DNA of 64,000 nucleotides, taken from the NCBI GenBank assembly GCA_043803015.1, contig JAZDKK010000051.1, forward strand, positions 17,213 to 81,212. Direction: 5' to 3'. The position numbers and the translations under genes were made by a program. The stretch comes from Verrucomicrobiota bacterium (GTDB lineage: Bacteria; Verrucomicrobiota; Kiritimatiellia; CAIQIC01; JAGNIJ01). The notes beneath the pieces were generated by a model. It did no database searches and was not told the origin of the DNA. It saw only the letters and a program-made list of their open reading frames with translations. The first letter of the stretch is position 1, and every line of letters begins with the position of its first letter. This document shows, piece by piece, positions 6,413 through 24,365 of the stretch.

Positions 6413-6452
6413 AGCCTCTCGCGCCATCGCCTAGCATCGAGCCGGGGTGAAC

Positions 6453-6557
6453 ATGACCGACCGGCACGGTACACCAGCAACACACGAACGGGTGGTCCGC
6501 GTCTTCATCTCCTCCACGTTCCACTACATGCATGGAAATGATCCTCCTGTGTGCTGA
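6453..6557 (+). pseudogene. orphan 5' stub of a DUF4062-type STAND gene (34 codons)
   Basis: Translates as MTDRHGTPATHERVVRVFISSTFHYMHGNDPPVC, then a stop at 6555-6557. Shares a 22-nt identical core (tccgcgtcttcatctcctccac, 6496-6517) with the heads at 11943-11986 and 16355-16398. Ends 25 nt before the next gene. Confidence 0.5.
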
Positions 6558-6582
6558 ATGAAAGATCATATGGAGTAGCACC

Positions 6583-9500
6583 ATGAGCAAACTCGAGAAC
6601 CGCCGCATCCGCATCTTCATTTCGTCACCGGGCGACGTCGCCGAGGAACGCGACCGTGCCCGTCAGGTGGTTGAGGAACTGCGACACCGTTATGCAGGAC
6701 GCTTGGACATCAAGGCGGTGCTCTGGGAGAAGCTGCCCCTGCAGGCCGACATGTCGTTCCAGCAGGGTATCGACCTGGTGCTCTCGCGCGAGCAGGGAAT
6801 CGATGTCGCCGTCTTCATCCTGTGGTCCCGCCTCGGGTCGCCGCTGGGTCCGCGCATCCGGAAACCGGACGGCACGCAGTACCGGTCAGGCACCGAACGC
6901 GAGTTCGACCTGATGCTGGCCGCCAGGAGAGAGAACAGGCAGCGCGACCCGGCCAGCGATTCTCCCAAGATCCTGCTCTACACGCGGAACGACGAGGCCA
7001 GCTTCGATGAACGGCTCCGCGGCCGATCCACGGACGAGAAGGAAGACATGATTGTGCAGAAGAAGCTCGTGGAGACCTTCGTCAAGGAGGAGTTCCGCGA
7101 TGCCACGACCGGCACGAATATCCGGGCCTATCATGTCTTCGGGCAGCCGGTGACCTTCTCGCAGAACCTGAGGGCCCACCTGGAGGAGATCCTGAACCCG
7201 ATGGTCGAGGGTTCCCAGGGAAGCCCGGCCTGGGATGTTACCCGGCTGGGTGCGCCGTTCCGGGGGTTGGAGGTCTTTCAGTTCGAGCACAGCCCGATCT
7301 TCTTCGGCCGCGAGGACGAGGTCCTCGAAGTGCGCCGGGCGCTGCAGCGGAAGGCGAGGGAAGGATGCGCCTTCGTATTGATCACGGGCGCGAGCGGCAG
7401 CGGCAAGTCATCGCTGGCGCGCGCGGGAGCGCTTCCGGCCGTGGTCTGGAACGAGGTGGACGACACGGTGGTCGGCTGGCGATACGCGATCTACACGCCG
7501 GGCCAACTGCAGGGCGATTTGTGCGGGGGCCTGGCCCGGCTTCTGTGCTCGGACGCGGTTCTGCCGGAACTGCGGATCAGCGACGACACCGCCACGGTGC
7601 TGGCCGAGGGCCTCGCGGCCGCGCCCAAGCTGACGGTCGACCAGAGCCTGCGCCCGGCTCTTCAGCGGGCGGCCCAGGGGAAGCACGGCTCCGTGCGCCT
7701 GATGCTGCTGGTCGACCAGCTGGAGGAACTGTTCACCGACAAGCGGCTGACGGACGCCCACCGGGAGCAATTCGTCAATGCGCTCGAAGCGATGGCCCGA
7801 AGCGGCGTGGTCTGGGTTCTCGCCACGGTGCGCAGCGATTTCTACCCATACTGCCAGCGGTTGCCTGCGCTGATGCGGGCGAAGGAAGGGCCGGGCCAGA
7901 TTGACATCCTCCCGCCCGCCGCCGATGCGCTGCGCCGCCTGATTGAGTGCCCCGCCGGGCTGGCCGGTCTCGTCTTCGAGAAGAGAGGCGAGACGTCCCT
8001 TGCGGACCGCATTCTGGATGACGCGACCGCGCATGCCGGGCTTCTGCCGCTGGTGTCCTACGTGTTGCGAGAGCTGTTCGAAAGACGCACGCCGGAGGGC
8101 GTGCTCACGTTCGCGGCGTACGACCAGCTGGGCGGTGTGGAGGGGGCGCTTGCCAAGCGGGTCGAGGCGGTGTTCTCCAGCCTGCCACCCGCTGCGCAGG
8201 CCCAGCTGCCTTCCGTCCTCCGGGGGCTGGTGAGCGTGAGCGGAGACGAAGAGGAGAGCGTGGTCAGGCAGCGCATGCCGATGGACGCGCTTTCGCTCGA
8301 CGGTCCCGCCCGTGTCCTCGTGGACAGGTTCATCCAGGAGCGATTCCTGGTCACGGACAGGACCACGAGCGGGACCCCCATGGCTTCTCTGGCACACGAG
8401 GCCCTGCTCGCTGTCTGGCCCCGCGCCGCCGCATGGACTACCGACAACCGTGACTTCCTGCGGGTCCGGGCTCGAGTCGCCGCCCGCATGAAGGAGGGAA
8501 GCCGCCTTCAGGAGGGGGACGCCCTGCTTGAGTCGGCAAAGCAACACCTGGCGACGGCCGGCGACGGCTTCACGGCGGAGCAGGTCTCTTTCATCCGGGA
8601 GTGCGCACGTGCGGTGGAGCGCGCCCGGCACAGGCGGGAACGCATCGTCATGTCCGTGGCGGCGGCATTTGCTGCTCTCTCCCTCCTTGCGGCGGGGGCC
8701 GGCTGGCTGGCTTGGCAGAAGAGGCAGGAGGCCGCGGCCGAAGCGCGGGCGCGTGCGCAACTGCTCCAGGACGCGGGCCGCAGCGAGCACGCTACGGCCG
8801 AAGGCATGTTTCGCGAGGGAAGTTGGGAAGGCGGTGTCATTCACCTCGGTCGCGCTCTCACCTACGACCCGCTCAACACGACCGCGGCAGCGCATATGTG
8901 GAGCGCGATCGTGCATTGCGCGAACAGGATACCCCCTCCGCTGGTCGGGCGGATCGACTACACTCAGGAACCCGACCGTCAAACGAAAGACCGCGACGAA
9001 AATGCGCGCGATGCGGCAACGATCCAGCACATGGCGCGGCGCGTCATAGGAGAGAACATCCGGGCCTGCCTGTTGCCGGCGGCTCTCATGCTTTTCCCTG
9101 CGGGGTCCTGGCGCGTGGGCGAGCAGGTTGCTGGCAGATGGGCCCGAAGCCGATACGAACAACGCGCAGACATCGGCGTTCATCCGAGGGACGCGAGCCC
9201 GAACGAGCCGGAGTCGCAGGCAAGTCCAACACCGGCAGGCACACAAATCCTGTCCAGGAACATGGTTGGTTACGTAGGGGATCGGTTCTTCGTGTGGGAA
9301 GGGATACCCCACTTCGCCCTGTCCCGCGATGGAACACGTGTCGTCCTCTGTCACTTTGAGCAGGGGTCTGCACAGGTCTTTGCCCTGCCGTCGGGTCAGC
9401 CCGTGGGCGAACGGGTGTTCTTGGGCGATGGGGCATCTTTCCAGGGGAGGGTCGTGCGAGTCGCTGTGTCTCCATCAGGCACGAGCTTCGCTGCCGGTGC

Positions 9501-11304: not shown

Positions 11305-11362
11305 AGAGAATCGTTGGAATTCAGGAAATGGAGTGACGCGGTCAGAAGAAGGCTGGTGAAGC

Positions 11363-11788
11363 ATGAAGATTATCAAGATACAGACCTTGGAAAAGGGCTG
11401 GTGCGACAAGGACCACGTGTTGCTTCACGCCGCTTTTCAGCTCCTGGTCGATTATGTCGAGCAGGAGAAACCTCAGAACGTGGATTGGACTTGGAATCGG
11501 GAGCCCAGGCATGCATGGGCTGAAATCAGATCGCTATACCGCTGGTGGAAGAAGACGCGTCCAAAGCGAAAAGATCCGCTGATGAGGAGGGGTCTGAAGC
11601 GCCCACCCTGGCGACTCAAGAAGATCCCTGGAAGCGAGCTCCTACAACGTGTGGACTACGACAAGAAGAAGTACGCCGCGTATGAAGCGGCATCGAAGGC
11701 AAGCCTGCGGCTGGACTGGGAGTGGCTCAAGGAGGATCAAAGGAATTTGCACCGACTGATCGAGATCAGGCCGTTCCTTTGGACGTAG
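11363..11788 (+). CDS. hypothetical protein (141 aa), visibly lower G+C than its neighbours
   Basis: ATG at 11363. Translation begins MKIIKIQTLEKGWCDKDHVLLHAAFQLLVDYVEQEKP, is basic and W-rich, and ends in FLWT. No family recognised with confidence. Confidence 0.55.
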   Translation: MKIIKIQTLEKGWCDKDHVLLHAAFQLLVDYVEQEKPQNVDWTWNREPRHAWAEIRSLYRWWKKTRPKRKDPLMRRGLKRPPWRLKKIPGSELLQRVDYDKKKYAAYEAASKASLRLDWEWLKEDQRNLHRLIEIRPFLWT

Positions 11789-11882
11789 AAATGCCGGACC
11801 CGGCCATCCAGCGGACCGGGTTCCCAAGGCACGCAACTGCGTGCGCACCTGGCGCGTTGCGGCCAGATGAGGAGCACGGCGC

Positions 11883-14800
11883 ATGAGCAAAGGAGACGAC
11901 CGGCGTTTCTCCGGCGGGACCAAACCCGCCGCGTCTCCCGATCGCGTCATCCGCGTCTTCATCTCCTCCACCTTCCGCGACATGCAGGAGGAGCGGGATT
12001 ACCTAGTGAAGTTCGTTTTTCCGGAATTGCGGAAGATGTGCGAGTCGCGCGGGGTGACGTGGGGCGAGGTGGATTTGCGCTGGGGGGTGACCACGGAGCA
12101 GGCGGCAGAGGGCAAGGTCTTGCCGATCTGTCTGGAGGAAATCAAACGCTGCCGGCCGTACTTCATTGGTCTCTTGGGCGAACGCTACGGCTGGATTCCC
12201 GATGCCATCCCGCAGGGAATCATCGACAGCGAGCCGTGGCTCAAGGAGCACGTCCACGACAAGAAGTCGGTTACCGAGCTGGAGATCCTGCATGGCGTGC
12301 TCCGCAATCCAGACATGGCGAGCCATGCGTTGTTCTACTTCCGCGATCCGGCCTACGTGAAGTCCGTGCCGGAGGAGAAGAAGGCAGACTTCACCACGGA
12401 AGACACGGAGAGCGCGGAGAGGCTCAAGGCGTTGAAGGAGAAGATACGCGCGAGCGGCTTTCCGGTGCGGGAGAATTATCCCGACCCCAAGGCGCTGGGC
12501 GAATTGGTGAAGCAGGACCTCATCGAGGTCGTTGATCAGCTGTACCCGCCGGGTGAAGAACTCGATCCGCTCGATCGAGAGGCGATGGAGCACGAGGCGT
12601 ATGCCGAGAGCCGGGCCAAGGTCTACATCGGCCGGCAGGCGTATTTCGACCGGCTCGACGCCCATGCCGGCAGCGCGGGCGATCAGCCGTTGGTCGTTCT
12701 CGGCGATTCGGGTTCGGGTAAATCAGCCCTGCTGGCAAACTGGGTGATCCGCTACCGGCAGGCGCATCCTGACGTCTTGGTGCTGCAGCACTTCATTGGC
12801 GCCTCGCCCTGCAGCGCCGACTGGGCGGCGATGCTGCGTCGGATCATGGGCGAGTTCAACCGGAAGCTCGGCATTCAGCAGGACATTCCCGACAGCCCGG
12901 ATTCGCTGCGCAGCGCCTTCCCCAACTGGCTCCACATGGCCGCGGCCAAAGGTCGCGTCGTGCTCGTGCTGGACGCGTTGAACCAGTTGGAGGATCGCGA
13001 TGGTGCGCGGGATCTCTTGTGGCTGCCTCCGGTCATGCCGGAGAACGTGCGGTTGATCGTCTCGACGTTGCCCGGCCGGCCGTTGGATGTGATCGGGGAC
13101 CGCGGTTGGCCCACCTATCTGGTCGAACCACTGAAGCCGGATGAACGCCAAGAACTCATCAAAGAGTACCTCGCGCAACACGCGAAGACCCTCGATCCCG
13201 TGCTCGTCGAGCGCATTGCCGCCGCGCCGCAGTCGGCCAATCCTCTTTACCTGCGCGTTCTGCTCGATGAGCTGCGCCTGTTTGGCGTCTTTGAACAGCT
13301 GGAGGAACGCATCGGCCATTACCTGAAAGCCGCAGACTCCTATGAACTCTACGAGAAGGTGGTCGCCCGGTGGGTGAACGACTACAGCGGCGATGCCCAC
13401 TTGGTCGGTGATACGCTCTCGCTGATTTGGGCTGCGCGCCGCGGCCTGTCCGAATCCGAGTTGCTTGGCGCTCTGGGCAGTAAAGACCAACCGCTGCCGC
13501 GCGCCCAATGGTCACCACTTTTCTTGGCCATGGGTGACGGTCTCGTCAGCCGAGGCGGGTTGCTGACCTTTGCCCACGATTTCCTGCGGACGGCGGTCCG
13601 CGACGCCTGCCTGCCCACTGAAGAGCAACAGCATCAGGCCCACAGCCGCCTCGCCGACTACTTCGAGCGTCAGCCAGGCCCTCGCCGGACCGATGAACTG
13701 CCTTGGCAATTGGCGGAGGCCAAGGCGTGGAGGCGCCTGCAGGCATTGTTAACCGTCCCGGGTTTCTTCTTGGCGGCATGGCATAGCAGCGAATTCGATG
13801 TCAAGACCTACTGGACTCGGATTGAGGCCGATTCACCGTTGCGCATGCTGGATGCGTATCTTGTGCAGACCGAGCATCCCCAGGGAGAATGGGACAAGGA
13901 CTTTCTGGACAGGTTGGCCAAGCTTCTTGCAGGCACCGGCCATTCCGGGGAGGCGATGAAGATATGGTCACACCTGATCGAGCTTAGCCGGGCCACTGGC
14001 GACATGAATAACCTCCAGGCGGGGCTCATCAATCAAGCAGAGATTCTGAAGGAGCACGGTGACTTGGAAGGATCCATGGCGCTGTCCAAGGAAGGGGAAC
14101 GGATTTGCCGCCAATTGGGCAATCTGAAGGACTTGTCAGCGAACCTCTGCAACCAAGCCTTGATCCTGCTGGCGCAGGGGGACTTGGACGCCGCCATAGC
14201 GTTGCTCAAGGAAGGGGAGCAGATTAGCCGCCAGTTAGGCCATGCGGGTATCCTCTCAGCGATTCTTGGTAACGAAGCGCTGATTCTCCATGATCGCGGG
14301 GACTTGGGTGGCGCGATGATGCTGTTCAAGGAACAGGAGCGGACTTGCCGCCAGTTGGGCAATCTGAGCAGCCTTTCATCGTGCCTCGGCAACCAAGCGT
14401 TGATTCTCCATGCTCGCGGGGATCTAGGTGGCGCGATGGCGCTGTATAAGGAACAGGAGCGGATTTGCCGCCAGTTAGGCGATCTGGACGGCCTCTCACA
14501 CACCATCGGCAACCAAGCGTTGATGCTGAGGGATCGCGGAGATCTGGACGTTGCACTGGCGTTGTTCAAAGAACAAGAGCGGATCTGCCGCCAGTTAGGC
14601 TATCTTGACGGCCTTTCACGGGCCCTGACTAACCGATCTGCGATCTTGCAGGATCGCGGCAATTTAGATGGTGCGATGGCCCTCATCAAGGAAGCGGAGC
14701 AGATATGCAGGCAGTTGAACAACCCGGCCGTTCTGGAAGTGATCCTCGGCCGCCAGGCAAACATCTTGTACGTGCGTGGAGACTTGGACGGGGCGATGGC

Positions 14801-16175
14801 CCTGTACAAGGAAGAGGAGCGGATTTGCCGCCAGTTGGGTTCCCCAAATGGACTGCAACGCACTCTCAGCAACCAAGCGTTGATCTTGGCGGACCGCGGG
14901 GACCTTGATGGCGCGATGGCGTTGCATGAGGAACAAGAGCAGATCTGTCGGAAGTTGGGCAATCTGGCCGACCTCTCAATTGCTCTCGTCAACCGGGCTG
15001 CGATCTTACAGGGTCGCGGGGATCTGGACGGTGCGATGGCGCTATACAAGGAAGGGGAAGGAATTTGCCGCCAGTTGGACAACTCGGCCTTCCTACGACC
15101 GATCCTCAGCGGTCAGGCGGACATCTTGCACGCGCGTGGAGACTTGGACGGAGCCATGGCACTGCTCAAGGAAGGGGAACGGATTTGCCGCCAGTTGGGC
15201 AATCCGGGCCCTCTAGCTGAGGTCCTTGGCAGACAGGCGTCAATTTTGAACCTGCGCGGGGATCCCCTAGGCGCAATGGCGCTATACAAGGAAGGGGAAC
15301 GGATTTGTCGGCAGATGGGCGATTTGGCCGCCCTGGCAACGACGCTCGGAAAACTGGCGTGGATATCGGCGGATCGCGGGGATCTGGACGGGGCGATGGC
15401 CCTGCACAAGGAAGAGGAGCGGATTTGCCGCCACCTGGGGAACCAAAAAGATCTGGCCGTATCGCTTTCCGGTCAGTCCAGGATCTTGCATGCGCGTGGA
15501 GATACGGAAGGTGCGGTGGCACTCCTTAGGGAAGGGGAGCGGATCTTTCGCCAGCTGGGTGATCTGGCCGCCCTCGCAACAACCCTCGGCAACGAATCCG
15601 TGATCCTAGCGGAACGTAGGGACCTGGACGGAGCCATGGCGTTGCTCAAGGAAGGGGAGCAGATTTACCGCCAGTTGGGCAATCCCCACGGCCTCGCGGC
15701 GATCCTAGGCAAACAGGCGAATGTGCTGCACATGCGTGGAGACTTGGACGGTGCGCTGGCGCTTTACAGGGAGGAAGAACATATCTGCGGGATGTTGGGC
15801 AACAGGGGCGGATTAGCCACGTCGCTTTTCAATCAAGCACTGCTTCTGTCCCGACGTCGATGCAACCGACGGGAGGCAGAAGCCAAGTGCGCTAAAGCAC
15901 GCGAGATATATACTGCGCTAGGAATGAGTGTGAACTGCTCGCGTGTTCAGGCTCTCCAGTTGCAGATGCGCTGGGGAGGTGTGCTGAAATGGCTGCCCAT
16001 TGGCTTGGGAGCTTTGGGGATCACGCTGGGCTTGTGGAATCCCTGGGTGTGGATCATCGGAGGACCTCTTGTTCTTGTGTGTGGCTTCTCGATTGCCTTC
16101 CGATTGTCGCCCCGTATTCGGTCAGTCTGTCAATCCCACGTTGGACAATGGATCGCTGACTCAAGAAAGCCGTAA
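11883..16175 (+). CDS. STAND NTPase: DUF4062 head, NACHT-like P-loop NTPase, about 16 tandem TPR-like repeats, two C-terminal TM helices
   Basis: The head reads VIRVFISSTFRDMQEERDYLV...FIGLLGERYGWIP...SVTELEILHG. Walker A is VVLGDSGSGKSALLANW (about 12694-12735) and Walker B is VVLVLDALNQLED. A 40-aa unit of the type LGNQALILxxRGDLDGAMALYKEGERICRQLGN is repeated about 16 times. The C-terminus has LKWLPIGLGALGITLGLW and WIIGGPLVLVCGFSIAF. Confidence 0.9.
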   Translation: MSKGDDRRFSGGTKPAASPDRVIRVFISSTFRDMQEERDYLVKFVFPELRKMCESRGVTWGEVDLRWGVTTEQAAEGKVLPICLEEIKRCRPYFIGLLGERYGWIPDAIPQGIIDSEPWLKEHVHDKKSVTELEILHGVLRNPDMASHALFYFRDPAYVKSVPEEKKADFTTEDTESAERLKALKEKIRASGFPVRENYPDPKALGELVKQDLIEVVDQLYPPGEELDPLDREAMEHEAYAESRAKVYIGRQAYFDRLDAHAGSAGDQPLVVLGDSGSGKSALLANWVIRYRQAHPDVLVLQHFIGASPCSADWAAMLRRIMGEFNRKLGIQQDIPDSPDSLRSAFPNWLHMAAAKGRVVLVLDALNQLEDRDGARDLLWLPPVMPENVRLIVSTLPGRPLDVIGDRGWPTYLVEPLKPDERQELIKEYLAQHAKTLDPVLVERIAAAPQSANPLYLRVLLDELRLFGVFEQLEERIGHYLKAADSYELYEKVVARWVNDYSGDAHLVGDTLSLIWAARRGLSESELLGALGSKDQPLPRAQWSPLFLAMGDGLVSRGGLLTFAHDFLRTAVRDACLPTEEQQHQAHSRLADYFERQPGPRRTDELPWQLAEAKAWRRLQALLTVPGFFLAAWHSSEFDVKTYWTRIEADSPLRMLDAYLVQTEHPQGEWDKDFLDRLAKLLAGTGHSGEAMKIWSHLIELSRATGDMNNLQAGLINQAEILKEHGDLEGSMALSKEGERICRQLGNLKDLSANLCNQALILLAQGDLDAAIALLKEGEQISRQLGHAGILSAILGNEALILHDRGDLGGAMMLFKEQERTCRQLGNLSSLSSCLGNQALILHARGDLGGAMALYKEQERICRQLGDLDGLSHTIGNQALMLRDRGDLDVALALFKEQERICRQLGYLDGLSRALTNRSAILQDRGNLDGAMALIKEAEQICRQLNNPAVLEVILGRQANILYVRGDLDGAMALYKEEERICRQLGSPNGLQRTLSNQALILADRGDLDGAMALHEEQEQICRKLGNLADLSIALVNRAAILQGRGDLDGAMALYKEGEGICRQLDNSAFLRPILSGQADILHARGDLDGAMALLKEGERICRQLGNPGPLAEVLGRQASILNLRGDPLGAMALYKEGERICRQMGDLAALATTLGKLAWISADRGDLDGAMALHKEEERICRHLGNQKDLAVSLSGQSRILHARGDTEGAVALLREGERIFRQLGDLAALATTLGNESVILAERRDLDGAMALLKEGEQIYRQLGNPHGLAAILGKQANVLHMRGDLDGALALYREEEHICGMLGNRGGLATSLFNQALLLSRRRCNRREAEAKCAKAREIYTALGMSVNCSRVQALQLQMRWGGVLKWLPIGLGALGITLGLWNPWVWIIGGPLVLVCGFSIAFRLSPRIRSVCQSHVGQWIADSRKP
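14014..15870 (+). repeat. tandem 120-bp coding repeats (about 15-16 units) encoding the TPR array of the 11883-16175 gene
   Basis: Strings such as ggagcggatttgccgccagttgggcaat recur every 120 nt (for example near 14097, 14337, 14457, 14817, 15177, 15297). The repeats are in frame with the gene. Confidence 0.85.
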
Positions 16176-16315
16176 GATTCCGCGGGTCGAGGGAAGGAGG
16201 CGAGTGCCAGCTTGCTCTCAGCCGGCTATGCGGCCCCGGAGAAACGAGCCGATCCTGAATAGAGTGCGCATTGCGGTGCAAGGAAAGTAAACTAGGAAGA
16301 GAGACTTCTCAGATC

Positions 16316-16516
16316 GTGAACGATTCAGGCACACCCGCGGCCACCGCCCCCAACCGCGTCATCCGCGTCTTCATCTCCTCCACCTTCCGCGACATGCACG
16401 CGGAGCGGGATCATCTGGTCACCGTCGTCTTCCCGGAGTTGCGGGAGCGGGTCGAGCAGTTGGGGCCGGAGTTCTTCGACGCGGCGATGGACAAGCTGGC
16501 CGGGTTCTTGAAATAA
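16316..16516 (+). pseudogene. orphan 5' stub of a DUF4062-type STAND gene (no ATG start; GTG 16316 or TTG 16271)
   Basis: Encodes ...NRVIRVFISSTFRDMHAERDHLVTVVFPELRERVEQLG, then diverges and ends in TAATAG. It carries a 44-nt run (16355-16398) identical to 11943-11986. It covers only the first half of the DUF4062 region seen in the full-length gene. Confidence 0.5.
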
Positions 16517-16534
16517 TAGGCGAGGGGAGGGGCC

Positions 16535-16954
16535 ATGCCGACGAAACCATTCCGTCTGGCCGTGAAGGCGGTGATCCTGGACGAGCAGGGGCGGTGCCTG
16601 CTCATCCGGCGGTCCGCGCACAACCGCAACTTTGTCGGCCGGTGGCAGTGGCCTGGAGGGAAGGTGGACGCGGGTGAGGATTTCGCCACCGCGCTGACAC
16701 GCGAGGTGATGGAAGAGACCAACCTGCAGGTCGAGATCACGGGCCTGGCCGGAGCCACCCATTTCGAAATGCCCGCCGTTCACGTGATCCTGCTTTGCCT
16801 GGAGGCGCGTCTCGCCGGGGGCGAGCTCAAGCTGAGCGAGGAACACGACGAAGCCGGCTGGACCCCGCTGGCGGAACTTCGCCGCCTCGAACTCGCCGAC
16901 CAGGTGCGCCCCTTCATGCTCGATTACGTAGCCAGAAAAGGAGCCCAAACATGA
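16535..16954 (+). CDS. NUDIX hydrolase (139 aa)
   Basis: ATG at 16535 behind GGGGAGGGG. Nudix box GGKVDAGEDFATALTREVMEETNL matches GX5EX7REUXEEXGU with the last G replaced by N. The stop at 16952-16954 overlaps the next ATG. Confidence 0.85.
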   Translation: MPTKPFRLAVKAVILDEQGRCLLIRRSAHNRNFVGRWQWPGGKVDAGEDFATALTREVMEETNLQVEITGLAGATHFEMPAVHVILLCLEARLAGGELKLSEEHDEAGWTPLAELRRLELADQVRPFMLDYVARKGAQT

Positions 16955-19581
16955 GCCCTGCCGCTCCCAACCATGCCCTGACCGATCCCCGCGTGGCAGC
17001 AAAACTCAGTGACGAGGACTGGGCGGCCCTGCACGTGCGGCGCTTCCAGAAGGTCCGCCCGCGTTACGTCGCCTACGAGGACGTTCTGAAACAGATCCTC
17101 AAGCAAGCATGCGGCAACCTCGCGCCGCTCGCCATGGTTGAGGCGCGCCCCAAGGCTTTGACCAGCTTTGCCGAGAAGATCCTGCGCAAGCGCAAGCTCT
17201 ACGTAGACCCCAAGGACCCGCTTCCGCCGGATCCGCTGGTCCGCATCACGGACCTCTGCGGTGGCCGTATAATCACCCAGACGTCGGACCAGGTGAATGC
17301 AGTATGTCGGTTCATCGAGCGGGCGTTCGACATCGACTGGCCCAACAGCGAAGACGTCAGCCAGCGCCTGCGTCCCACAGAGTTCGGCTATCGGTCGGTT
17401 CACTACATCGTGCTCGTCAATCCAAAGAAGCTTCAGGCCGCCGGTATCACGGCCACGATTCCCAAGAACGTCCTCGGCCTCAAGGCCGAGATCCAGGTCC
17501 GCACGTTGCTCGAACATGCCTGGGCCGACATCGGCCATGACATGACGTACAAGACCGAAATGAAAGTGCCGGATCGCATCAAGCGCGAGGCCGCGGCGCT
17601 CGCCGCCGTGCTGGAGGACGTCGACCGCGAATTCGGCCGGCTGGTGCGTGGTCTCGATGTGTTCAAATCCAACTTTGGCGCCTACCACACGCGAGACGAG
17701 GTGGAAAGGGAGATCAACAGGCTCCGCATCGTGCTGTCCCGCGATTCGGAGAATGTGGCCCTGGCTGTGAAGATCGCCCAGCTTGCGCTTTCTCTCGGCC
17801 AACACGAGACCGCCCTCAAGATCCTCAAGCCCTACGCGACCAGGCCGCATCAGGGCGTGCAACGGGTCACAGGCGTTGCGCTGACGGACATGCATTGGGA
17901 TCATCCCCGAAGCAAGGAGTTCATCCAGGGCCGGCGGTCTCTTGAAGCCGCCTGCTCCCATCCCGAGAAAGACGCCGAAACGCTCTGTGCCCTGGCCGAG
18001 AGCTGGGCGCGGGAAGATGAATCCAAGGCCCGAGACCTGTTCCATAAAGCGGTTGCCGTAGATGCCACCGAACCGGTGACGCTCAGCCGGCACATCGAGT
18101 TCGAAGTCGCCCACACGACCAGCAATGCGGTGGTCCGGATCGTCGCACCGATGATCCGCAACTCCATGGATCGTTGCCGCAAGGAGATCGGGGCGCGCGT
18201 CAACCTTCCGTACGCATGGGCCAGCCTCGCCGTATTTCATCTCCTCGTCGGGGAGCCCTTCGACGCCCTCAAGGCTATCGCCCAGGTCATCCGGCTCTGC
18301 GACCCGCCCGAAGGCGCAGCGGCCAGCGTGGCCGGCGGCTGCGGCCAACGCGGCCGTCCATGTGCCGCCGGCCGTGCGCTCCTGCGTATGCGCGAGACCC
18401 TGAATCGCATTCGCTGCATCAGCGAGAAGCTCTGCGGCTTCGACTGGTGCGAACGCGCCGTCCTGCTGGGCGTGGCGGCGCGCGAGCGAGACCCTGAGGC
18501 GCTCGCTGCTCTGCGCGAGGCGGCCTGCTGGAAGAAGGACAAGCCGCATGTCTCGGCAACCGACAGCATCGTCGTGCTGGCCGGCGGGTGTGTGCCGGAG
18601 GTACAAGACGCAATCGATGCGTTCAAACCCCATCTGCTCGATGCCTGCAAGGGCCTGTCGTTCACCCTCTTCTGCGGCGGCACCGGTCGCGGCATCAGCG
18701 GTGTGGCCGGTGACATGGCCGAGCAGTCTGGCGGGGCCATTCGGGCCTTCGGCTACATGCCGAAGACGCTACCCCTGAGGATCCATGAGGACACCAATCG
18801 GGCCCGTTTCGCCGATCACTTCTCCAGCCCAGGGAACGATTTCACGCCGTCGGATCCGCTGCAGGGCTGGACCGATATCATTGTGGCCGGAGTGGACCCG
18901 CACCGGGTGAAGCTGTTGTGCTACGCCGGGAAGGACATCGCGTCCTGCGAATGCGCGATGGCCCTGGCTCTGGGAGCTCGGGTCGGTGTGGTGGAAGACC
19001 CGTCTTTGCCCAGGGAACGTCAGTTCAAGGACCCGGACTGGCAGGATCATCCCAACCTGGCCCGTCTCCCGAAGGACACCATGACCTTGCGCGCCTTCCT
19101 GCTGGTGGACGAACTTCCCTGCAAGCGGAAGAAGTTCGAGCACGCCGCGCAGAAGACCCACGAGGAGTACGTCAAGTCGGCCATCCCGAAAGACCCCTCC
19201 CTGCAGAGTTGGGAGGACCTTGCCGAAGACCTCAAGATCTCCAACTTCCACCAGGTGGCCTACGCCGAAAACATCCTCAAGACGGCCGGCTTGGGCATCC
19301 GCGAAATGACCGATCCGAAGAAGAAGCTCCTCGACGTGGAGAAGGCTCTGGGCAGAAAGCGCATCCGGCGCATGGCCGAGATGGAGCACGGCCGCTGGAA
19401 CGTCGAACGTCTCCTGCTGGGTTGGCGCTACGCCGACGAAAAGGATGTGGTCAAGAAGCTGTCCCCGTACCTGGTGCCATGGGACAAACTGCCTGCGAAG
19501 ATCCAGAAGTACGACCTCGACGCCATGCGCGCCCTGCCGAAGACATTCAGGGCGGCAGGGTTGGAGGTGTACAGGCTGTGA
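16951..19581 (+). CDS. RelA/SpoT-homologue (synthetase-only) fused to helical repeats, a LOG/SLOG-like Rossmann domain and tandem RyR-like repeats (876 aa)
   Basis: ATG at 16951 with AAAAGGAG at 16936-16943. Synthetase motifs EARPKALTSFAEKILRK, ITDLCGGRII, GYRSVHYIV, EIQVRTLLEHAWADIGHDMTYK. No HD hydrolase, TGS or ACT region. SLOG/LOG-like FCGGTGRGISGVAGDMA ... YAGKDIASCECAMALALGARVGVV. RyR-like SWEDLAEDLKISNFHQVAYAENILKTAGLGI and EMEHGRWNVERLLLGWRYA...LVPWDKLPAKIQKYDLDAMRALP. Confidence 0.85.
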   Translation: MSPAAPNHALTDPRVAAKLSDEDWAALHVRRFQKVRPRYVAYEDVLKQILKQACGNLAPLAMVEARPKALTSFAEKILRKRKLYVDPKDPLPPDPLVRITDLCGGRIITQTSDQVNAVCRFIERAFDIDWPNSEDVSQRLRPTEFGYRSVHYIVLVNPKKLQAAGITATIPKNVLGLKAEIQVRTLLEHAWADIGHDMTYKTEMKVPDRIKREAAALAAVLEDVDREFGRLVRGLDVFKSNFGAYHTRDEVEREINRLRIVLSRDSENVALAVKIAQLALSLGQHETALKILKPYATRPHQGVQRVTGVALTDMHWDHPRSKEFIQGRRSLEAACSHPEKDAETLCALAESWAREDESKARDLFHKAVAVDATEPVTLSRHIEFEVAHTTSNAVVRIVAPMIRNSMDRCRKEIGARVNLPYAWASLAVFHLLVGEPFDALKAIAQVIRLCDPPEGAAASVAGGCGQRGRPCAAGRALLRMRETLNRIRCISEKLCGFDWCERAVLLGVAARERDPEALAALREAACWKKDKPHVSATDSIVVLAGGCVPEVQDAIDAFKPHLLDACKGLSFTLFCGGTGRGISGVAGDMAEQSGGAIRAFGYMPKTLPLRIHEDTNRARFADHFSSPGNDFTPSDPLQGWTDIIVAGVDPHRVKLLCYAGKDIASCECAMALALGARVGVVEDPSLPRERQFKDPDWQDHPNLARLPKDTMTLRAFLLVDELPCKRKKFEHAAQKTHEEYVKSAIPKDPSLQSWEDLAEDLKISNFHQVAYAENILKTAGLGIREMTDPKKKLLDVEKALGRKRIRRMAEMEHGRWNVERLLLGWRYADEKDVVKKLSPYLVPWDKLPAKIQKYDLDAMRALPKTFRAAGLEVYRL

Positions 19582-19689: not shown

Positions 19690-19766
19690 GTCCCGGTAGC
19701 TCAGTTGGACAGAGCGCTGGATTCCTAATCCGGAGGTCGCGGGTTCAAGTCCCGCCCGGGATACCA
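19690..19766 (+). tRNA. tRNA-Arg (anticodon CCT) with encoded CCA
   Basis: Hand-folded cloverleaf: GTCCCGG TA GCTC AGTTGGACA GAGC G CTGGA TTCCTAA TCCGG AGGTC GCGGG TTCAAGT CCCGC CCGGGAT A CCA. Position 1:72 is a G-U pair. Confidence 0.9.
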
Positions 19767-19887
19767 GTCTTCGCTGCGCAGCGCGGCGGAGCAGCGAAGA
19801 CTGCCTCGGCGTAGTGGCGCGCAGCGCGCCACGAAGCCGGGCCCTTACGCGTCGCGCCTCGAACTTCGCCCGGGCAAGCCATCTTCC
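19714..19887 (+). repeat. direct repeat copy A: 3' two-thirds of tRNA-Arg plus a ~120-nt structured trailer
   Basis: Near-identical to 24183-24365 apart from a few substitutions and an 8-nt insertion in copy B. The trailer starts with the hairpin GTCTTCGCTGC-13 nt-GCAGCGAAGAC and contains GTGGCGCG-CAG-CGCGCCAC. Confidence 0.85.
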
Positions 19888-19962
19888 CTTCCAGGATGTG
19901 GCCCTCAGATTCAGCTTGAAACGATGTGGGGCTGGCGCGAACATCCGTCCGGAGGGAAGGGC

Positions 19963-22900
19963 ATGAACGCGTTGAGGGGGCTGCGTCGGCGGCAGCGAGC
20001 ACTCACCGCGGGCTTCGTCATTCTGGTTGGCCTGTTAGTTCTCTACTCCTTCGCGCAGTACTACGTCTCGGTCACCGCTGAACAGCGGGCGCTCGCCCGA
20101 TACGACGACCTCATCAGCCAGCATGGGATCACGGACCTGGATGCCCTTGTCGGCGAGTTTGCCTACTACCAGTTCGGCGGCCTTCCGTCCCTTCCGGGAA
20201 CCGAGCCTTGGGATCACCATGTCGGTCCTTATCCGGTCGATTGGGAGAACTTTCCCGAGGAGATAACGACCAACCTTGTCGGCTACTGGGAAGGCAATGT
20301 GCCGGTGTATGAACTGTATGTCTTCCAGGACAGTGACACGCGCGAGATCATCTTCCTCAACAGTGACCAGCAGGAAATCTACTCGGTCGAATGCCCCCAC
20401 GGCGACTACTGCGACCCGGCGGCCTACGCCCTCTATCGCCGCCCCGACCTCTACTCCGGCAACTACACCCAGGACGAGATCAACGACTACATTGCCTACT
20501 GCGATCCGGCTAGGCTAGGCCTCTGGATCAAGCTGGTTCCCACGGAGCATCTCTATGAGTACCTCTACGCCCAGGCGCAGGAAGAAGGCTTCTTCCAAGC
20601 CCTGACCGCCGAGATCAACGAGGGCGGTGGTATGCAGATGATGACAAGCGGCAGCGGGGGAAGCGGCCCGCTCAACGATCTGGACGGTGACGGCGTGCCC
20701 AACCGGGACGAGATCGTCGCCGGCACGGACCCCGAAGACGCATCCGACTTCCTTCGGATCACCAACATGCAGCTTGCCGCCTCCGGCCGCGAGATCTGGT
20801 GGCCGTCGGTCAGCAACAGGCAGTACAGCGTAATGACAACCACGGGCGGTGTCGCGCTTCTGAGCCCGCAGACGTGGACCGTGGCGACGCAGTGGCTGGA
20901 CGGGACCGACAGCGTCCTTGTGTTCACCGATACGGTGAGTGATGCGGAGGTGGCATTCCTTCACGTTCAGGTCCGCGGGACGGACTCGAACACCAACGGC
21001 CTGCCCGACTGGTGGGAGATCGAGAACTTCGGCGGTCTGACCAACATCACCGCCACCGGTGACGAGGACAACGACGGCCTGGACAATCGGGAGGAGCTCT
21101 ATTACGGATACTCGCCCACCAACTCAGAGCGCACTCTCTACCACAGCGGGTTCAACGTGGTCGAAGTTGCCACGAACAGCCCCAACCCCGATGACGGGAC
21201 CGAGGAGTTCGATTTCCACGCGGCTGGAAGGCCGTTGTCTCTGGCCGCAGGCGCATCCGATGCAGACTGGGGCGGTCGCATCCCGACGGTTTACGGGGCA
21301 TCGTACAGCTTCAGCGGCGGCATCTTCTTCAACAACGATCAATCCAATCTCTACGTGGGCATCTGCGGGCTGGAGAGAGGAAGCGACAACGCATTCGTCC
21401 TCTTCATTGACTCCGGGTCTGGTGGGGTGACCAACCTTGCCCACCTGAGCGGTAGGCCTTATGCGCTGGGCATTGCCGACAACTTGGGGTTCAACGCCAC
21501 GCAGTTCACGCCCAATGTCGCCATCCTCGTAGGCGACAATCGGGACGACGGCTCGAACAACATCTACCGTACCATCGGCGGCAATGATGTCGGACAGGGC
21601 GTGTATGAGTTATCCAGCAACACCAACATCGCGGATTTCGCGGGATTCAGCCGGACGACGGGAGGCGCGCCGATTTCCCAATGGAGTATCAACGGGTCTG
21701 CAGGCGACTCCCCAAACGCGGGTGTCGAAATCGTCTTGAGCTTGTCTGCGCTGGGCGTGGAGCCCGGGGACACCATTCGAGTCGCCGGCGTCTTCCTGGG
21801 TGGGACATCGGGTGTCAACCGCTGGGTGGTGGAGGAAGCCTACGGGCAGAGCCTCTCGGGAAGTGGTTTTAGCGCTGTGACGCTGGTGGGGGCTCCGGTT
21901 CAGTTGGCCAGCGTTCAGCAGACCCTGCCGCCAAGCACATATCCCGGTTTCATGGATGACGACGTGATGTTTCAGGGGTTCTACTGGGACGTCGAACCTC
22001 GACTGGGCTGGTGGACGAATCTCGCAGGCAAAGTCAGCGACCTAGCCTCTGCTGGATTCACGATGATATGGCTTCCGCCACCCTACAAAGCAGCCAATGC
22101 CGCATATTCCGTGGGCTACGACCCCTTCGATCACTATGACTTGGGTGAGTATGATCAAAGGGGCTCAGTTCCTACCAGATACGGGATGAAATCCGAGTTC
22201 ACCAACTTGATCGCGGAACTCCTCGCATCAAACATCACTCCCATCTGTGACGTTGTGCTGAACCATATGGCTGGTGGGACTAACGTCGACCACAAGTCCT
22301 TCGACTATCCGCACAACATCTTCGAGAAGGGGAGCACCAACTTCCATCCGTCCGCCACCGGTCACAACGACGAGATATTCCCCTACCACCACAACGAGGA
22401 ATTCGGCACTTATGAGCCCTCGGGCATTTACGGGGTGGACAACGACTTCCTCGACCCGCACATGAGGCGGGGACTAAAGCAATGGGGCAGTTGGCTGGTC
22501 ACCAACGTCAACTTCGGCGGATTCCGCTTCGACTACACGGAAGGCATCGAGCCTTGGTATCTCTGGGAGTGGCTGAACTACCCAGCGCAGAGACCCCTGT
22601 TCGGATTCATGGAGTACTGGGCCAATGCCGACGCAATCGAGATGCGCGCATGGCTGAACCTTACAGGTTGGAGAGCCGCAATCTACGACTGGAACTTGCA
22701 GCAACTGCTCGAGGAGATGTGCGAGGACAGTGGTTCGACGTTTGACATGTCGGACTTGCAGGCTCCCAGCCTCCTCGGCATCGAACCGGAATACACCGTT
22801 ACCTTTGTCGAAAACCACGACACGCTGCAACCGACCAACGAAACTGGCGTGGCCACCAACAAGCACATGGCGTACGCCTACATCCTGCACTCACAGGGGC

Positions 22901-23301
22901 TTCCGCTGGTCTTCTATCACGACTACTACGATCAGCCATACTATGTCGGGGGAACCAACTACGCGGGCGTTGCGCTCAAGCCGCAGATTGACCGTCTGAT
23001 TCTGATCCGAAAGGCTACGGTCGCTGGTAGCGTCGCGTATCTCAACACGAACGCCGACCTGTTCATTCAGCAGCGCGACGGCGGGGCGCAGAAGCCGGGC
23101 TCCATCTTGGTCATCAACGACCATCCCTCGAGTACGCTGACCAACCAGGTTCAAACGATATACACGAACGAGTGGTTGATTGACCTGGTCTCGACGAATC
23201 CTGCCACGCTGGTGCAGACGGACACTAACGGCGTGGTTGGTCTTTCGGCTTTGCCACGCGACTACCGGATCTACGGACTGACCAACTCGCTCACGGAGTA
23301 G
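19963..23301 (+). CDS. secreted multidomain GH13 alpha-amylase-family glycosidase with TSP3-like Ca-binding repeats
   Basis: ATG at 19963 behind GGAGGGAAGGG. Signal-anchor sequence LTAGFVILVGLLVLYSF. Contains DLDGDGVPNRDE and DEDNDGLDNREE. GH13 conserved regions present: DVVLNHMAG, GFRFDYTEG, EYWA, FVENHDT. G+C is visibly lower than the flanks. Confidence 0.85.
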   Translation: MNALRGLRRRQRALTAGFVILVGLLVLYSFAQYYVSVTAEQRALARYDDLISQHGITDLDALVGEFAYYQFGGLPSLPGTEPWDHHVGPYPVDWENFPEEITTNLVGYWEGNVPVYELYVFQDSDTREIIFLNSDQQEIYSVECPHGDYCDPAAYALYRRPDLYSGNYTQDEINDYIAYCDPARLGLWIKLVPTEHLYEYLYAQAQEEGFFQALTAEINEGGGMQMMTSGSGGSGPLNDLDGDGVPNRDEIVAGTDPEDASDFLRITNMQLAASGREIWWPSVSNRQYSVMTTTGGVALLSPQTWTVATQWLDGTDSVLVFTDTVSDAEVAFLHVQVRGTDSNTNGLPDWWEIENFGGLTNITATGDEDNDGLDNREELYYGYSPTNSERTLYHSGFNVVEVATNSPNPDDGTEEFDFHAAGRPLSLAAGASDADWGGRIPTVYGASYSFSGGIFFNNDQSNLYVGICGLERGSDNAFVLFIDSGSGGVTNLAHLSGRPYALGIADNLGFNATQFTPNVAILVGDNRDDGSNNIYRTIGGNDVGQGVYELSSNTNIADFAGFSRTTGGAPISQWSINGSAGDSPNAGVEIVLSLSALGVEPGDTIRVAGVFLGGTSGVNRWVVEEAYGQSLSGSGFSAVTLVGAPVQLASVQQTLPPSTYPGFMDDDVMFQGFYWDVEPRLGWWTNLAGKVSDLASAGFTMIWLPPPYKAANAAYSVGYDPFDHYDLGEYDQRGSVPTRYGMKSEFTNLIAELLASNITPICDVVLNHMAGGTNVDHKSFDYPHNIFEKGSTNFHPSATGHNDEIFPYHHNEEFGTYEPSGIYGVDNDFLDPHMRRGLKQWGSWLVTNVNFGGFRFDYTEGIEPWYLWEWLNYPAQRPLFGFMEYWANADAIEMRAWLNLTGWRAAIYDWNLQQLLEEMCEDSGSTFDMSDLQAPSLLGIEPEYTVTFVENHDTLQPTNETGVATNKHMAYAYILHSQGLPLVFYHDYYDQPYYVGGTNYAGVALKPQIDRLILIRKATVAGSVAYLNTNADLFIQQRDGGAQKPGSILVINDHPSSTLTNQVQTIYTNEWLIDLVSTNPATLVQTDTNGVVGLSALPRDYRIYGLTNSLTE

Positions 23302-23305
23302 CATT

Positions 23306-24010
23306 ATGAGAAGCCGCTATCTTCCATTTGCCATGTTCCTTGCGACCGGAGCTGCCGTCTCCGCGGACTACATCTTCAATGTGGACTTCGAGGATCCGCC
23401 ACACGTCGTGAATCAGCAAGTCGTCACAGGGAGCGCCATAGATCGGCCGACATATGCCGAGGCGACGGTGCTCGCCCGCACCAATGTGGCAGATTTCACC
23501 ACACAGGTCGCCTCCTTGGAGCCAGCTGGAGCAATGGCCTTCTTCTACGATCCGGCCGTCACCTCCGGTCTGGTGCGCCTCAGTTGGGACATGGCGGTCC
23601 TCAGTCTGGGGACGGGTGGCGGTTTGGATTCCGCCGCAGTCGCTATACAATCGAGTCCGACTGGCGTGGGCGATGTGTTCATTGACTACGAATACGACTT
23701 TGACTTGGAGATCGCGAATGTTGATGTGGGGACCTACGCCTTGGGCAACCAACATCATCTCGAGTTCCTTTTCGACCTTGACTCAGACGTGTTCAGCGTG
23801 TGGCTGAATAGCTCTCTGGTTCTGACCAACACTGCTGTCAACCCAACCTTCGATATTCAGAATGTCTTGTTCAGCCGCGAAAACCTCCAGAATCCGACGT
23901 ACGCCGTCGACAACTTCCAGTGGGAGATCATCCCGGAACCCTCGACCGCCTTTCTGATGCTGCTAGGCAGCGTCTTCTTCGTGGCTCAGCGGGTGCGCCG
24001 ACGCCAATGA
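23306..24010 (+). CDS. PEP-CTERM sorting-signal protein
   Basis: N-terminal signal sequence MRSRYLPFAMFLATGAAVSA. The C-terminus IPEPSTAFLMLLGSVFFVAQRVRRRQ has the PEP motif, a TM helix and a basic tail. Confidence 0.8.
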   Translation: MRSRYLPFAMFLATGAAVSADYIFNVDFEDPPHVVNQQVVTGSAIDRPTYAEATVLARTNVADFTTQVASLEPAGAMAFFYDPAVTSGLVRLSWDMAVLSLGTGGGLDSAAVAIQSSPTGVGDVFIDYEYDFDLEIANVDVGTYALGNQHHLEFLFDLDSDVFSVWLNSSLVLTNTAVNPTFDIQNVLFSRENLQNPTYAVDNFQWEIIPEPSTAFLMLLGSVFFVAQRVRRRQ

Positions 24011-24182: not shown

Positions 24183-24365
24183 GCGCTGGATTTCCCGCTT
24201 CCTAATCCGGAGGTCGCGGGTTCAAGTCCCGCCCAGGATACCAGTCTTCGCTGCGCAGCGTGGCGGAGCAGCGAAGACTGCCTCGGCGTAGTGGCGCGCA
24301 GCGCGCCACGAAGCCGGGCCCTTACGTGTCGCGCCTCGGACTTCGCCCGGGCAAGCCATCCTTCC
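24183..24365 (+). pseudogene. direct repeat copy B: truncated tRNA-Arg 3' fragment (anticodon loop disrupted by an 8-nt insertion) plus trailer
   Basis: Homology to tRNA-Arg begins abruptly at gcgctggatt. There is no acceptor 5' strand or D-arm upstream. tcccgctt is inserted in the anticodon loop. The T-arm, CCA and the ~120-nt trailer are conserved. Confidence 0.75.

Follow-up and report, generated by a model that had tools for sequence, protein, structure and literature searches.

What would a protein do that joins an alarmone synthetase to two putative ligand-sensing domains, and why does a NUDIX hydrolase gene run directly into its coding sequence? This question is raised by a gene pair in a 64,000-nucleotide stretch of a Verrucomicrobiota genome (GenBank assembly GCA_043803015.1, contig JAZDKK010000051.1, positions 17,213 to 81,212), which we call the window and in whose numbering all coordinates are given. 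On the + strand, a 139-aa NUDIX hydrolase of MutT/NudG type (16535-16954) is followed by an 876-aa protein (16951-19581, +) that combines a synthetase-only RelA/SpoT homologue (RSH) domain with TPR-like helices, a SLOG domain and a tandem RyR domain. An initial annotation, made from the DNA letters, had proposed the pair as a nucleotide-based immunity or toxin module. We find that the architecture is real and widespread, and apparently undescribed. With about even confidence, we read the pair as the effector module of a nucleotide-signalling conflict system of the anti-phage, abortive-infection type, in which an NAD-derived signal, alarmone synthesis and the NUDIX enzyme act together. The gene pair suggests a new route from infection signal to growth arrest in microbes.

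Both open reading frames (ORFs) and their overlap lie as annotated. The TGA of the NUDIX gene (16952-16954) overlaps the ATG of the large gene (16951) by 4 nt, in the form ATGA, and judged by this arrangement NUDIX is translationally coupled to the RSH gene. An alternative TTG start of the RSH frame at 16795 would give a 928-aa version. The ATG at 16951 is favoured by a Shine-Dalgarno sequence (AAGGAG) 8 nt 5' of it, by the agreement of the N-termini of 30 aligned homologues, and by a Verrucomicrobial relative, for which independent gene calls give the same 139-aa NUDIX and the same 4-nt overlap with the large gene. The 876-aa protein is identical to an NCBI entry from a metagenome-assembled genome, named "RyR domain-containing protein [Verrucomicrobiota bacterium]". 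All four domain calls of the initial annotation (NUDIX, RSH, SLOG and RyR) stand by Pfam, an AlphaFold2 (AF2) model and Foldseek. A chance origin of the architecture is excluded, since over 150 clusters of full-length proteins (50% identity, E<=1e-165) have the same complete architecture.

The N-terminal domain of the large protein (aa ~20-236; 17008-17658, +) is an RSH synthetase by both profile and structure searches. Pfam RelA_SpoT (PF04607) matches aa 66-203 at E 1e-16 and 61.6 bits (cut-off 27), and every synthetase motif quoted in the annotation is present. The full-length AF2 model, built from a 31-sequence alignment (pLDDT 84.5, pTM 0.73), divides the protein into an alpha/beta part (aa 1-236), helical repeats (aa 248-524), a Rossmann-like part (aa 540-718) and a helical C-terminus (aa 730-876). 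Searched with Foldseek against the PDB, its N-terminal domain finds RelQ and RelP (5dec, 6ex0; TM-score ~0.7, E 1e-6). A family profile run against the PDB likewise finds RelQ/RelP, at E 3e-14 to 9e-9, compared with 0.1 for CapRel (7ztb, 9erv), and the GYRSxH G-loop is common to the window domain and RelQ. Pfam and NCBIfam give no HD, TGS or ACT match and the model has no additional N-terminal domain, in agreement with the synthetase-only assignment. Conservation was assessed on the window protein plus 68 near-full-length genome homologues, archaeal ones included, down to ~33% identity (69 sequences). The RSH ATP-binding and catalytic residues R66, K68, S72, K76, K80, D101, G104, R106, Y147, E180 and Q182 are kept in 68-69 of the 69. 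That these are the residues under the strictest conservation points to synthesis as the central activity. The synthetase part also matches the PADLOC defence-candidate model PDC-S33 (1.2e-14), over only that part of its 349 positions; PDC-S33 is a candidate rather than a validated system. Separately, phrog_9640, a PHROG family of unknown function with a 365-position profile, matches the domain at 4e-38, far above any solved structure. A phage origin of the domain is nonetheless unsupported, as tblastn against GenBank phages gives at most 33% identity despite this match.

The helical region (aa ~248-524; 17692-18522, +), which the annotation had described as about 300 aa of helical repeats, comes to about 280 aa of TPR-like helices in the AF2 model. 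The window protein itself has a weak TPR_19 match; TPR matches in Pfam are clearer for homologues, and Foldseek finds TPR matches to SPINDLY and OGT.

The third domain (aa ~535-720; 18553-19110, +) is a SLOG domain, probably of the LSDAT (TRPM-type) family, as identified by a domain model, Foldseek and the Pfam matches of homologues. When aa 528-726 are modelled alone, the pLDDT reaches 91.6, and the top Foldseek matches are LOG TM1055, nvTRPM2, DprA, LOG, TRPM4 and Moco-carrier proteins, at E 1e-5 to 1e-3. Since LOG, the TRPM2 and TRPM4 N-terminal regions, DprA and the Moco-carriers all belong to the SLOG superfamily, we assign the segment to the SLOG fold. The TRPM2 matches among the top ones come from ADP-ribose (ADPR)-type complexes (9jje, 8sre). 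Pfam LSDAT_prok (PF18171, "SLOG in TRPM, prokaryote") is matched by 9 of 23 family members, the best at E 5.6e-5, and its curated cut-off of 25.4 bits is passed by two fused relatives (25.8 and 26.3 bits). Near-invariant across the 69 sequences are the glycine loop G576-G577-T578..G581 and Q638, W640, D642 and E667. The LOG/SLOG-type segment seen by the annotation is thus a SLOG fold with a conserved GGTxxG.

The C-terminus (aa ~727-876; 19130-19578, +) is a tandem RyR/R12 domain with a divergent first repeat (H737, Y740) and a canonical second one (H813, W816, S838, D855). Pfam RyR (PF02026) matches aa 805-873 at E 2.5e-10 and 40.9 bits (cut-off 27.4). By sequence and by Foldseek, aa 727-876 align over their whole length to the RyR3 Repeat1-2 domain and to a Bacteroides thetaiotaomicron RyR protein. 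The sequence match to a B. theta/hRyR chimera has an E value of 1.7e-17, and Repeat1-2 of RyR2/3 is also matched. Because the whole of aa 727-876 aligns to RyR3 Repeat1-2, the C-terminus consists of two tandem repeats, and the two half-repeats of the annotation are borne out by both Pfam and fold. Phage RyR-domain proteins bind or cleave 2'/3'-cyclic ADPR (cADPR) through H75, W78, H100 and D117, and most of the RyR homologues tested in the same 2026 preprint bound the signal without cleaving it (PMC13232231). Mapped onto the numbering of the phage protein RyDEP, indirectly, via the B. theta and RyR alignments, the His position (H813) is kept in 68 of 68 family sequences, the Trp (W816) in 63 of 68 and the Asp (D855) in ~63 of 65. 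The ThsA SLOG domain of Thoeris is reported to be activated by 3'cADPR (10.64898/2026.03.01.708072). By analogy, SLOG and RyR are plausible ligand sensors, as the annotation had suggested. Because the SLOG domains of ThsA and TRPM2 and the phage RyR proteins bind such ligands experimentally, the ligand would be of ADPR type.

Other proteins with RyR domains recur beside the RSH gene, in 23 loci when the flanking ORFs of the neighbourhood set described below are clustered. They comprise TrkA_N(RCK)-RyR proteins of ~600 aa, AAA_16-RyR proteins of 870-1020 aa, a double-RyR protein of 876 aa and a stand-alone RyR protein of 160 aa; examples are L030:4677-6470, L055:12876-14696, L022:10217-12820, L023:15327-18398, L046:5969-8596 and L036:14011-14490. 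With 37% identity (E 5e-24), the tandem RyR module of the RSH protein is present in full in the TrkA_N-RyR neighbour, down to a family-specific Ser to which we return. The 870-1020-aa neighbours were considered as TPR-SLOG-RyR paralogues with a swapped effector; this was rejected, as only the RyR module is shared and the rest is AAA_16 or TrkA_N. The RyR module may be a common ligand sensor or adaptor across several effectors of one system.

The NUDIX protein matches Pfam NUDIX at E 7e-24. Its Nudix box, GKVDAGEDFATALTREVMEETNL, fits GX5EX7REUXEEXGU except for a Gly-to-Asn change at the penultimate position, which is the one deviation behind the "near-canonical" of the annotation; the catalytic REx2EE is intact and homologues carry the canonical Gly. 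Its best NCBIfam matches are MutT and NudG-like models, with all equivalog scores below cut-off. Among solved structures, 3grn, a protein related to MutT from Methanosarcina mazei, comes closest (E 2e-19 over 117 residues); MutT, CTP pyrophosphohydrolase and NUDT18 come next, and NudG and NudI are likewise among the nearest relatives. 3grn is a structural-genomics structure and a close homologue of this NUDIX clade, and may serve as a template. An ADPRase-type NUDIX is unsupported, the nearest relatives being MutT, NudG and NUDT18 and not ADP-ribose pyrophosphatases. E. coli MutT and NudG are reported to hydrolyse (p)ppGpp, and the Bacillus Nudix NahA to act on it (PMC5845004, PMC7593582, PMC7584652). 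On its motifs and matches, our protein fits an NTP-pyrophosphohydrolase type that would be compatible with alarmone hydrolysis. It also matches the PADLOC model PDC-S07 nearly over its full length (3.9e-24), again a defence candidate and not a validated system.

How widely the architecture occurs bears on whether it serves housekeeping or conflict. A profile search of 1.84 billion representative proteins returned 1,498 clusters (50% identity) at E<=1e-30, of which the best 150 all have E<=1e-165 and are nearly all full length. In one-genome-per-species records, relatives occur in 267 of ~185,600 species genomes. The bacterial hosts belong to Planctomycetota, Verrucomicrobiota, Lentisphaerota, Desulfobacterota, Chloroflexota, Gemmatimonadota, Proteobacteria, Bacteroidota, Actinomycetota, Nitrospirota and Omnitrophota, the archaeal ones to Bathyarchaeia, Methanomicrobia, Methanoregulaceae and Thermoplasmatota. 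The family is patchy and horizontally spread rather than housekeeping. A syntenic housekeeping locus is rejected, as flanking genes differ between lineages, and the non-housekeeping view of the annotation is upheld by the scattered phyla and archaea, the STAND-rich surroundings and the occasional link to an integrase. These data also bear on a physiological, non-immune role, in which the pair would be an accessory alarmone synthetase and hydrolase that ties NAD/ADPR status (redox, DNA damage) to a stringent-like response. Such a role would suit the nearest relatives of the synthetase, the housekeeping enzymes RelQ and RelP, the pairing of NUDIX with a synthetase, which mirrors the design of bifunctional Rel, and a GC content near that of the flanks (0.636-0.65 vs 0.65-0.67). 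We consider it quite improbable: a general stress regulator sits badly with so few species genomes spread over distant phyla and archaea, with flanking genes that are unconserved between lineages, with recurrent placement in NLR-like gene clusters, and with the integrase that adjoins the locus in a relative.

We fetched 78 neighbourhoods of the RSH gene, of which 47 are well-flanked, with at least 3 kb on both sides. NUDIX adjoins the RSH gene in ~50 of the 78, mostly directly upstream on the same strand and often with the same 4-nt overlap; it lies directly downstream in ~9 loci and on the opposite strand in 4. Among the well-flanked loci, 32 of 47 (68%) have it. The identities of NUDIX and RSH proteins to those of the window co-vary (Spearman 0.60, p 3e-6). 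The downstream and opposite-strand NUDIX genes form a different, more distant class, whose identity stays at 28-37% even beside an RSH gene with 62% identity, and since they are non-orthologous, the NUDIX activity appears to have been recruited repeatedly. Moreover, the N-terminus is longer by 120-200 residues in 13 of the best 150 representatives, and 8 of 10 checked are single-chain NUDIX-RelA_SpoT-TPR-SLOG-RyR fusions (P0127, P0175, P0176, P0201, P0210, P0236, P0249 and P0263); in P0148 and P0166, a similarly sized extension matches no Pfam family. Given the linkage, the co-variation, the repeated recruitment and the fusions, NUDIX is an integral enzymatic partner of the RSH protein. The co-conservation that the annotation had proposed to survey is therefore found, in the gene neighbourhoods, in the correlated identities and in the fusions. 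About a third of loci have no NUDIX, including those of the closest Planctomycete homologues with 10-kb flanks. Of the annotated role as a product-degrading antidote, the co-conserved partnership thus remains, whereas an obligate antidote to a constitutive toxin does not, because a third of the loci do without it. The existence of NUDIX-RSH fusions favours an in-cis enzymatic partner, comparable to HD, over a classical antitoxin. In the NUDIX-less Planctomycete locus L001 and the syntenic L014, L016 and L025, a 948-aa protein (12671-15514 in L001) is encoded 73 nt 3' of the RSH gene; it combines an AAA_16 ATPase of the STAND class with 550 N-terminal residues that match no Pfam family.

Unbiased clustering of the flanking ORFs gave three recurring families besides NUDIX, one of them the RyR-domain proteins described above. 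TIR-NB-ARC-WD40 proteins are neighbours in 27 loci, with N-termini that match Pfam TIR_2 down to 8e-26 and in some cases also ThsB_TIR, and DUF4062-NACHT/nSTAND-TPR proteins in 23. A sensitive hidden Markov model scan locates TIR or DUF4062 domains within 5 kb of the RSH gene in 37 of 78 loci, and in 22 loci the distance is below 1 kb. At less than 1 kb from the RSH gene there are 1.9 such domains per 10 kb, compared with ~0.6 per 10 kb at 5-10 kb; 79% of these genes are co-oriented with the RSH gene, and 35 of 40 TIR domains retain the catalytic Glu. In the Swarozyc defence system, DUF4062 acts as a TIR-like NADase and produces ADPR (2026 preprint, PMC13174449), and DUF4062 "Evangelion" systems protect against phages (2026 preprint). 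It is unlikely that the STAND neighbours are just island background, and they are specifically of the TIR/DUF4062, that is NADase, types. The annotation had placed the pair in a STAND-rich island next to a tRNA, and in the window both are present. Across the family, the STAND genes are probably more than background, and the tRNA is not a shared feature: a tRNA-targeted island as a family-wide trait is rejected, as only 6 of 60 loci have a tRNA within 10 kb.

In the window, the nearest complete STAND gene encodes a 1430-aa DUF4062(TIR-like)-NACHT-TPR protein (11883-16175, +; Pfam DUF4062 7e-16, NACHT, TPR_MalT/TPR_12). It carries the 'CLEEI' Glu motif that is common to the DUF4062 neighbours of other loci and is a candidate upstream sensor and NADase, as far as its domains can tell. 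It is preceded by a second NLR-like gene for a 1573-aa DUF4062-nSTAND1-WD40 protein (6583-11304, +; nSTAND1 5e-86, WD40, and a weak DUF4062 match at 2e-4).

The neighbourhoods also bear on a more autonomous arrangement, in which the two proteins would be a toxSAS-like toxin-antitoxin or abortive-infection pair. The RSH protein would be the toxin and NUDIX a type IV product-degrading antitoxin, the tail would sense a phage protein or metabolite directly as in CapRel, and the STAND genes would be bystanders. The pair appears to have its own promoter-like site (TGGACA-18 nt-AATAAT, TG-extended; 16488-16517, +), which lies 5' of the NUDIX start and inside a probable DUF4062 relic and has 10 of 12 consensus matches. 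Two such sites occur in the region against 0.3 expected from shuffles, a consensus match only and not functional evidence. Translational coupling, too, would suit a self-sufficient pair, as would the 13 of 47 well-flanked loci that have NUDIX and no TIR/DUF4062-STAND gene, the separate matches of the two proteins to PDC-S07 and PDC-S33, and the precedent of a product-degrading hydrolase that neutralises toxic SAS enzymes (PMC7229694). However, about a third of loci have no NUDIX at all, in-cis fusions are ill-suited to a separately regulated antitoxin, and the synthetase is nearest to the non-toxic RelQ/RelP and not to CapRel. SLOG and RyR are small-molecule binding modules, and the supposed bystanders are of NADase type, enriched beside the RSH gene and co-oriented with it. 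We regard this arrangement as a serious contender that is still unlikely.

The same neighbours could be read in the opposite direction, with the pair as a terminator of TIR signalling. RyR and SLOG would then sequester or cleave cADPR-type signals and NUDIX would degrade ADPR, with the RSH domain as an accessory, so that the cell is protected from its own NADase-STAND systems. The equivalents of the RyDEP catalytic dyad, H813 and D855, are kept, the NUDIX class includes ADPR pyrophosphatases, and other RyR-only proteins occur in the same neighbourhoods. We find this very improbable, since the RSH catalytic residues are the most strictly conserved of all, the NUDIX is MutT/NudG-like and not ADPRase-like, and most RyR homologues tested in the preprint bound the signal without cleavage.

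We therefore return to an effector module that is switched on by an NAD-derived signal, and infer its ligand, product, NUDIX substrate, direction of signalling and immune role as follows. Once triggered, the NLR-like STAND sensors would cleave NAD+ through their TIR or DUF4062 heads. SLOG and/or the tandem RyR, held on the TPR scaffold, would bind an NAD-derived nucleotide, either ADP-ribose or a signal of 2'/3'-cyclic ADPR type. Binding would turn on the RelQ/RelP-like synthetase, and the resulting alarmone burst would arrest growth; (p)ppGpp is the likeliest product, and (pp)pApp or tRNA pyrophosphorylation are also conceivable. The co-translated MutT/NudG-type NUDIX would destroy basal or residual alarmone and thereby set a threshold and a reset, much as HD does in Rel/SpoT. 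The NAD-derived ligand, which the initial annotation had not proposed, is suggested by the NADase-type STAND neighbours together with the new RyR-cADPR biochemistry. A bolder variant, which we regard as a long shot, is that the RSH domain pyrophosphorylates the captured ADPR-type nucleotide at the 3'-OH of its adenosine ribose, or otherwise makes a new second messenger, which NUDIX would then trim or erase.

Several observations weigh against a signalling chain from NADase to alarmone. About half of the 78 loci have no TIR/DUF4062-STAND gene within 5 kb, so that the partnership would be facultative or the signal source encoded elsewhere, and both NUDIX and such a gene are missing from 9 of the 47 well-flanked loci. 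Since DUF4062 proteins and many TIR-STAND proteins are regarded as executioners that deplete NAD on their own, co-location may reflect mere clustering in defence islands. As to the sensors, the SLOG segment of the window protein itself has no match to PF18171, and ThsA is absent from the 50 best structural matches to the SLOG model. In RyR, the residue that corresponds to H100 of RyDEP, which binds phosphate there, is Ser in 51 of 68 sequences and Ser, Asn or Thr in 64 of 68. The substrate specificity of a NUDIX protein cannot be read from its sequence. Finally, the family has archaeal members, yet to our knowledge (p)ppGpp signalling is not established in archaea.

If the NAD-to-alarmone chain is correct, it links NAD-derived TIR/NLR immune signalling with (p)ppGpp-type growth control, which have so far been studied separately, and would be the first case of TIR/NLR-type immunity wired directly into the stringent-response alarmone. 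It would give RyR/R12, whose nucleotide binding was shown only in 2026 in phage anti-defence proteins, a role on the host side linked to an effector, and would add the replacement of HD by NUDIX to the design repertoire of RSH enzymes. Were the messenger-making variant true instead, the module would act downstream of NLR-like NADases, in bacteria and archaea alike, to convert or amplify their signal. With ~1,500 clusters at 50% identity, the family is a large one and extends to archaea, whose alarmone biology has hardly been explored. Two eukaryotic questions are touched as well, namely why TRPM2 joins SLOG to NUDIX and whether cADPR is sensed by RyR R12 domains.

The remaining features of the locus concern its history and surroundings. 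The STAND/RSH block (6583-19581) lies on one strand, with a region resembling a dcw cluster (MraZ, FtsW) on its left and a tRNA-Arg(CCT) gene (19690-19766, +; 109 nt past the RSH stop) at its right-hand edge. We found no convincing compositional anomaly, at the GC values given above. Between the 1430-aa gene and the NUDIX gene, an 81-aa ORF (16271-16516, +) holds only the start of a DUF4062 domain (the first ~25-50 residues; Pfam DUF4062 1.3e-5, model positions 1-23). By a reading of the ORF translations, it is ~70% identical to the start of the protein encoded at 11883-16175. Going by this resemblance, the ORF is probably the relic of a third STAND gene, truncated at the promoter-like site of NUDIX. 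Short DUF4062 or TIR fragments adjoin the RSH gene in L036, L056 and L018 as well. The C-terminus of the 1430-aa protein (15990-16175) has what look like two hydrophobic helices resembling transmembrane segments (WLPIGLGALGITLGLW...IIGGPLVLVCGFSIAF), which is unusual in an NLR-like protein. The 3' half of the tRNA-Arg gene plus at least 34 nt downstream (19722-19800+) is directly repeated ~4.5 kb away at 24199-24277+, with 2 mismatches in ~79 nt. The repeats bracket an amylase-like gene (19924-23301) and a PEP-CTERM protein gene (23306-24010), not the STAND/RSH block, and look like att-type scars of an integrated segment with no integrase.

Elsewhere in the set, the Verrucomicrobial relative (L011/L079-L081) has, 3' of its RSH gene, a phage-type integrase on the opposite strand and then a tRNA-Val (~6190-7390); a TPR_NPHP3 fragment and a gene of the Exo_endo_phos family lie 5' of its NUDIX. 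Several loci have a ClpB-like double-AAA+ protein in the vicinity of the RSH gene (among L038, L039, L050, L053, L055, L062, L068 and L006), with 1300 aa and a long N-terminal extension in L039, and a BtpA-family gene occurs there in 5 loci. The ClpB-like and BtpA loci are mostly from Gemmatimonadota.

How does the pair compare with known systems? RelQ/RelP (SAS1/SAS2) are its best sequence and structure matches and share the synthetase-only fold, the GYRSxH G-loop and the catalytic Glu of EIQVRT. However, they are single-domain tetrameric proteins of ~210-230 aa, whereas the window protein adds ~640 aa of TPR-SLOG-RyR and a NUDIX partner, and identity is ~20-27%. The annotation had likened the pair to the toxSAS enzymes, stand-alone RSH synthetases that act as growth-arresting effectors; the group includes FaRel, FaRel2, PhRel, CapRel and Tas1. 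The likeness extends to an adjacent product-degrading hydrolase that can neutralise them (the small alarmone hydrolase (SAH) ATfaRel) and to the fused regulatory C-terminal domain of CapRel (PMC7229694). Their hydrolase is of HD-type SAH and ours is NUDIX, the regulatory region here consists of small-molecule sensor domains, and the effector role here is putative. Since the synthetase is far closer to the non-toxic RelQ/RelP than to CapRel, the only toxSAS member compared, the analogy holds for function and not for membership. The toxSAS classification paper describes no such architecture (PMC7229694), and Kaur et al. 2020 report a RelA nucleotidyltransferase domain as a rare domain in vWA-MoxR systems (PMC7159879). 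In line with the annotation, which knew of no described system of this kind, the literature searched holds no description of SLOG and RelA/SpoT combined with RyR or NUDIX; the founding SLOG paper, Burroughs et al. 2015 (NAR 43:10633), lay outside that search.

Type I Thoeris (ThsB TIR and ThsA SIR2-SLOG) follows the same logic as we propose, from a TIR-family NADase via an ADPR-derived signal to SLOG on an effector. Here too TIR genes adjoin a SLOG protein, and some neighbours match the ThsB_TIR model. The differences are an RSH instead of a SIR2 effector, TIR/DUF4062 domains fused to STAND NTPases with WD40/TPR instead of a small ThsB, an additional RyR sensor and NUDIX, and a SLOG of LSDAT/TRPM type; there is no SIR2 or ThsA match and PADLOC reports no Thoeris model. 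The neighbours themselves resemble the DUF4062 systems Swarozyc and Evangelion and bNACHT/Avs, which likewise have DUF4062/TIR N-termini on NACHT, NB-ARC or nSTAND1 with TPR/WD40. Swarozyc and Evangelion are described as self-contained NAD-depleting executioners, and neither preprint mentions an RSH, SLOG, RyR or NUDIX partner; nor does the RyR preprint mention RSH, SLOG or NUDIX partners. Phage RyDEP and the RyR R12 family (PF02026) share the Pfam family and the fold with our C-terminus and, by the indirect mapping above, the His, Trp and Asp positions for ligand and catalysis. RyDEP is a small viral anti-defence homodimer, whereas here the repeats form the C-terminus of a multidomain host enzyme with Ser at the H100 equivalent.

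TRPM2, with its N-terminal SLOG/MHR1-2 and C-terminal NUDT9-H NUDIX, brings the same LSDAT-type SLOG and a NUDIX together in one ADPR-responsive system; it is a eukaryotic ion channel with an ADPRase-derived NUDIX, whereas the NUDIX here is MutT-like and the output enzymatic. Long bifunctional Rel/SpoT proteins place a hydrolase N-terminal to the synthetase, followed by a regulatory C-terminus, and the NUDIX-RSH fusions reproduce this order, with NUDIX in place of HD and TPR-SLOG-RyR in place of TGS/helical/ZFD/ACT-RRM, and with no ribosome-binding domains. With toxSAS and Thoeris the pair shares functional analogies only, membership in either not being established; its membership in the RSH (synthetase-only), SLOG, RyR and NUDIX superfamilies is established.

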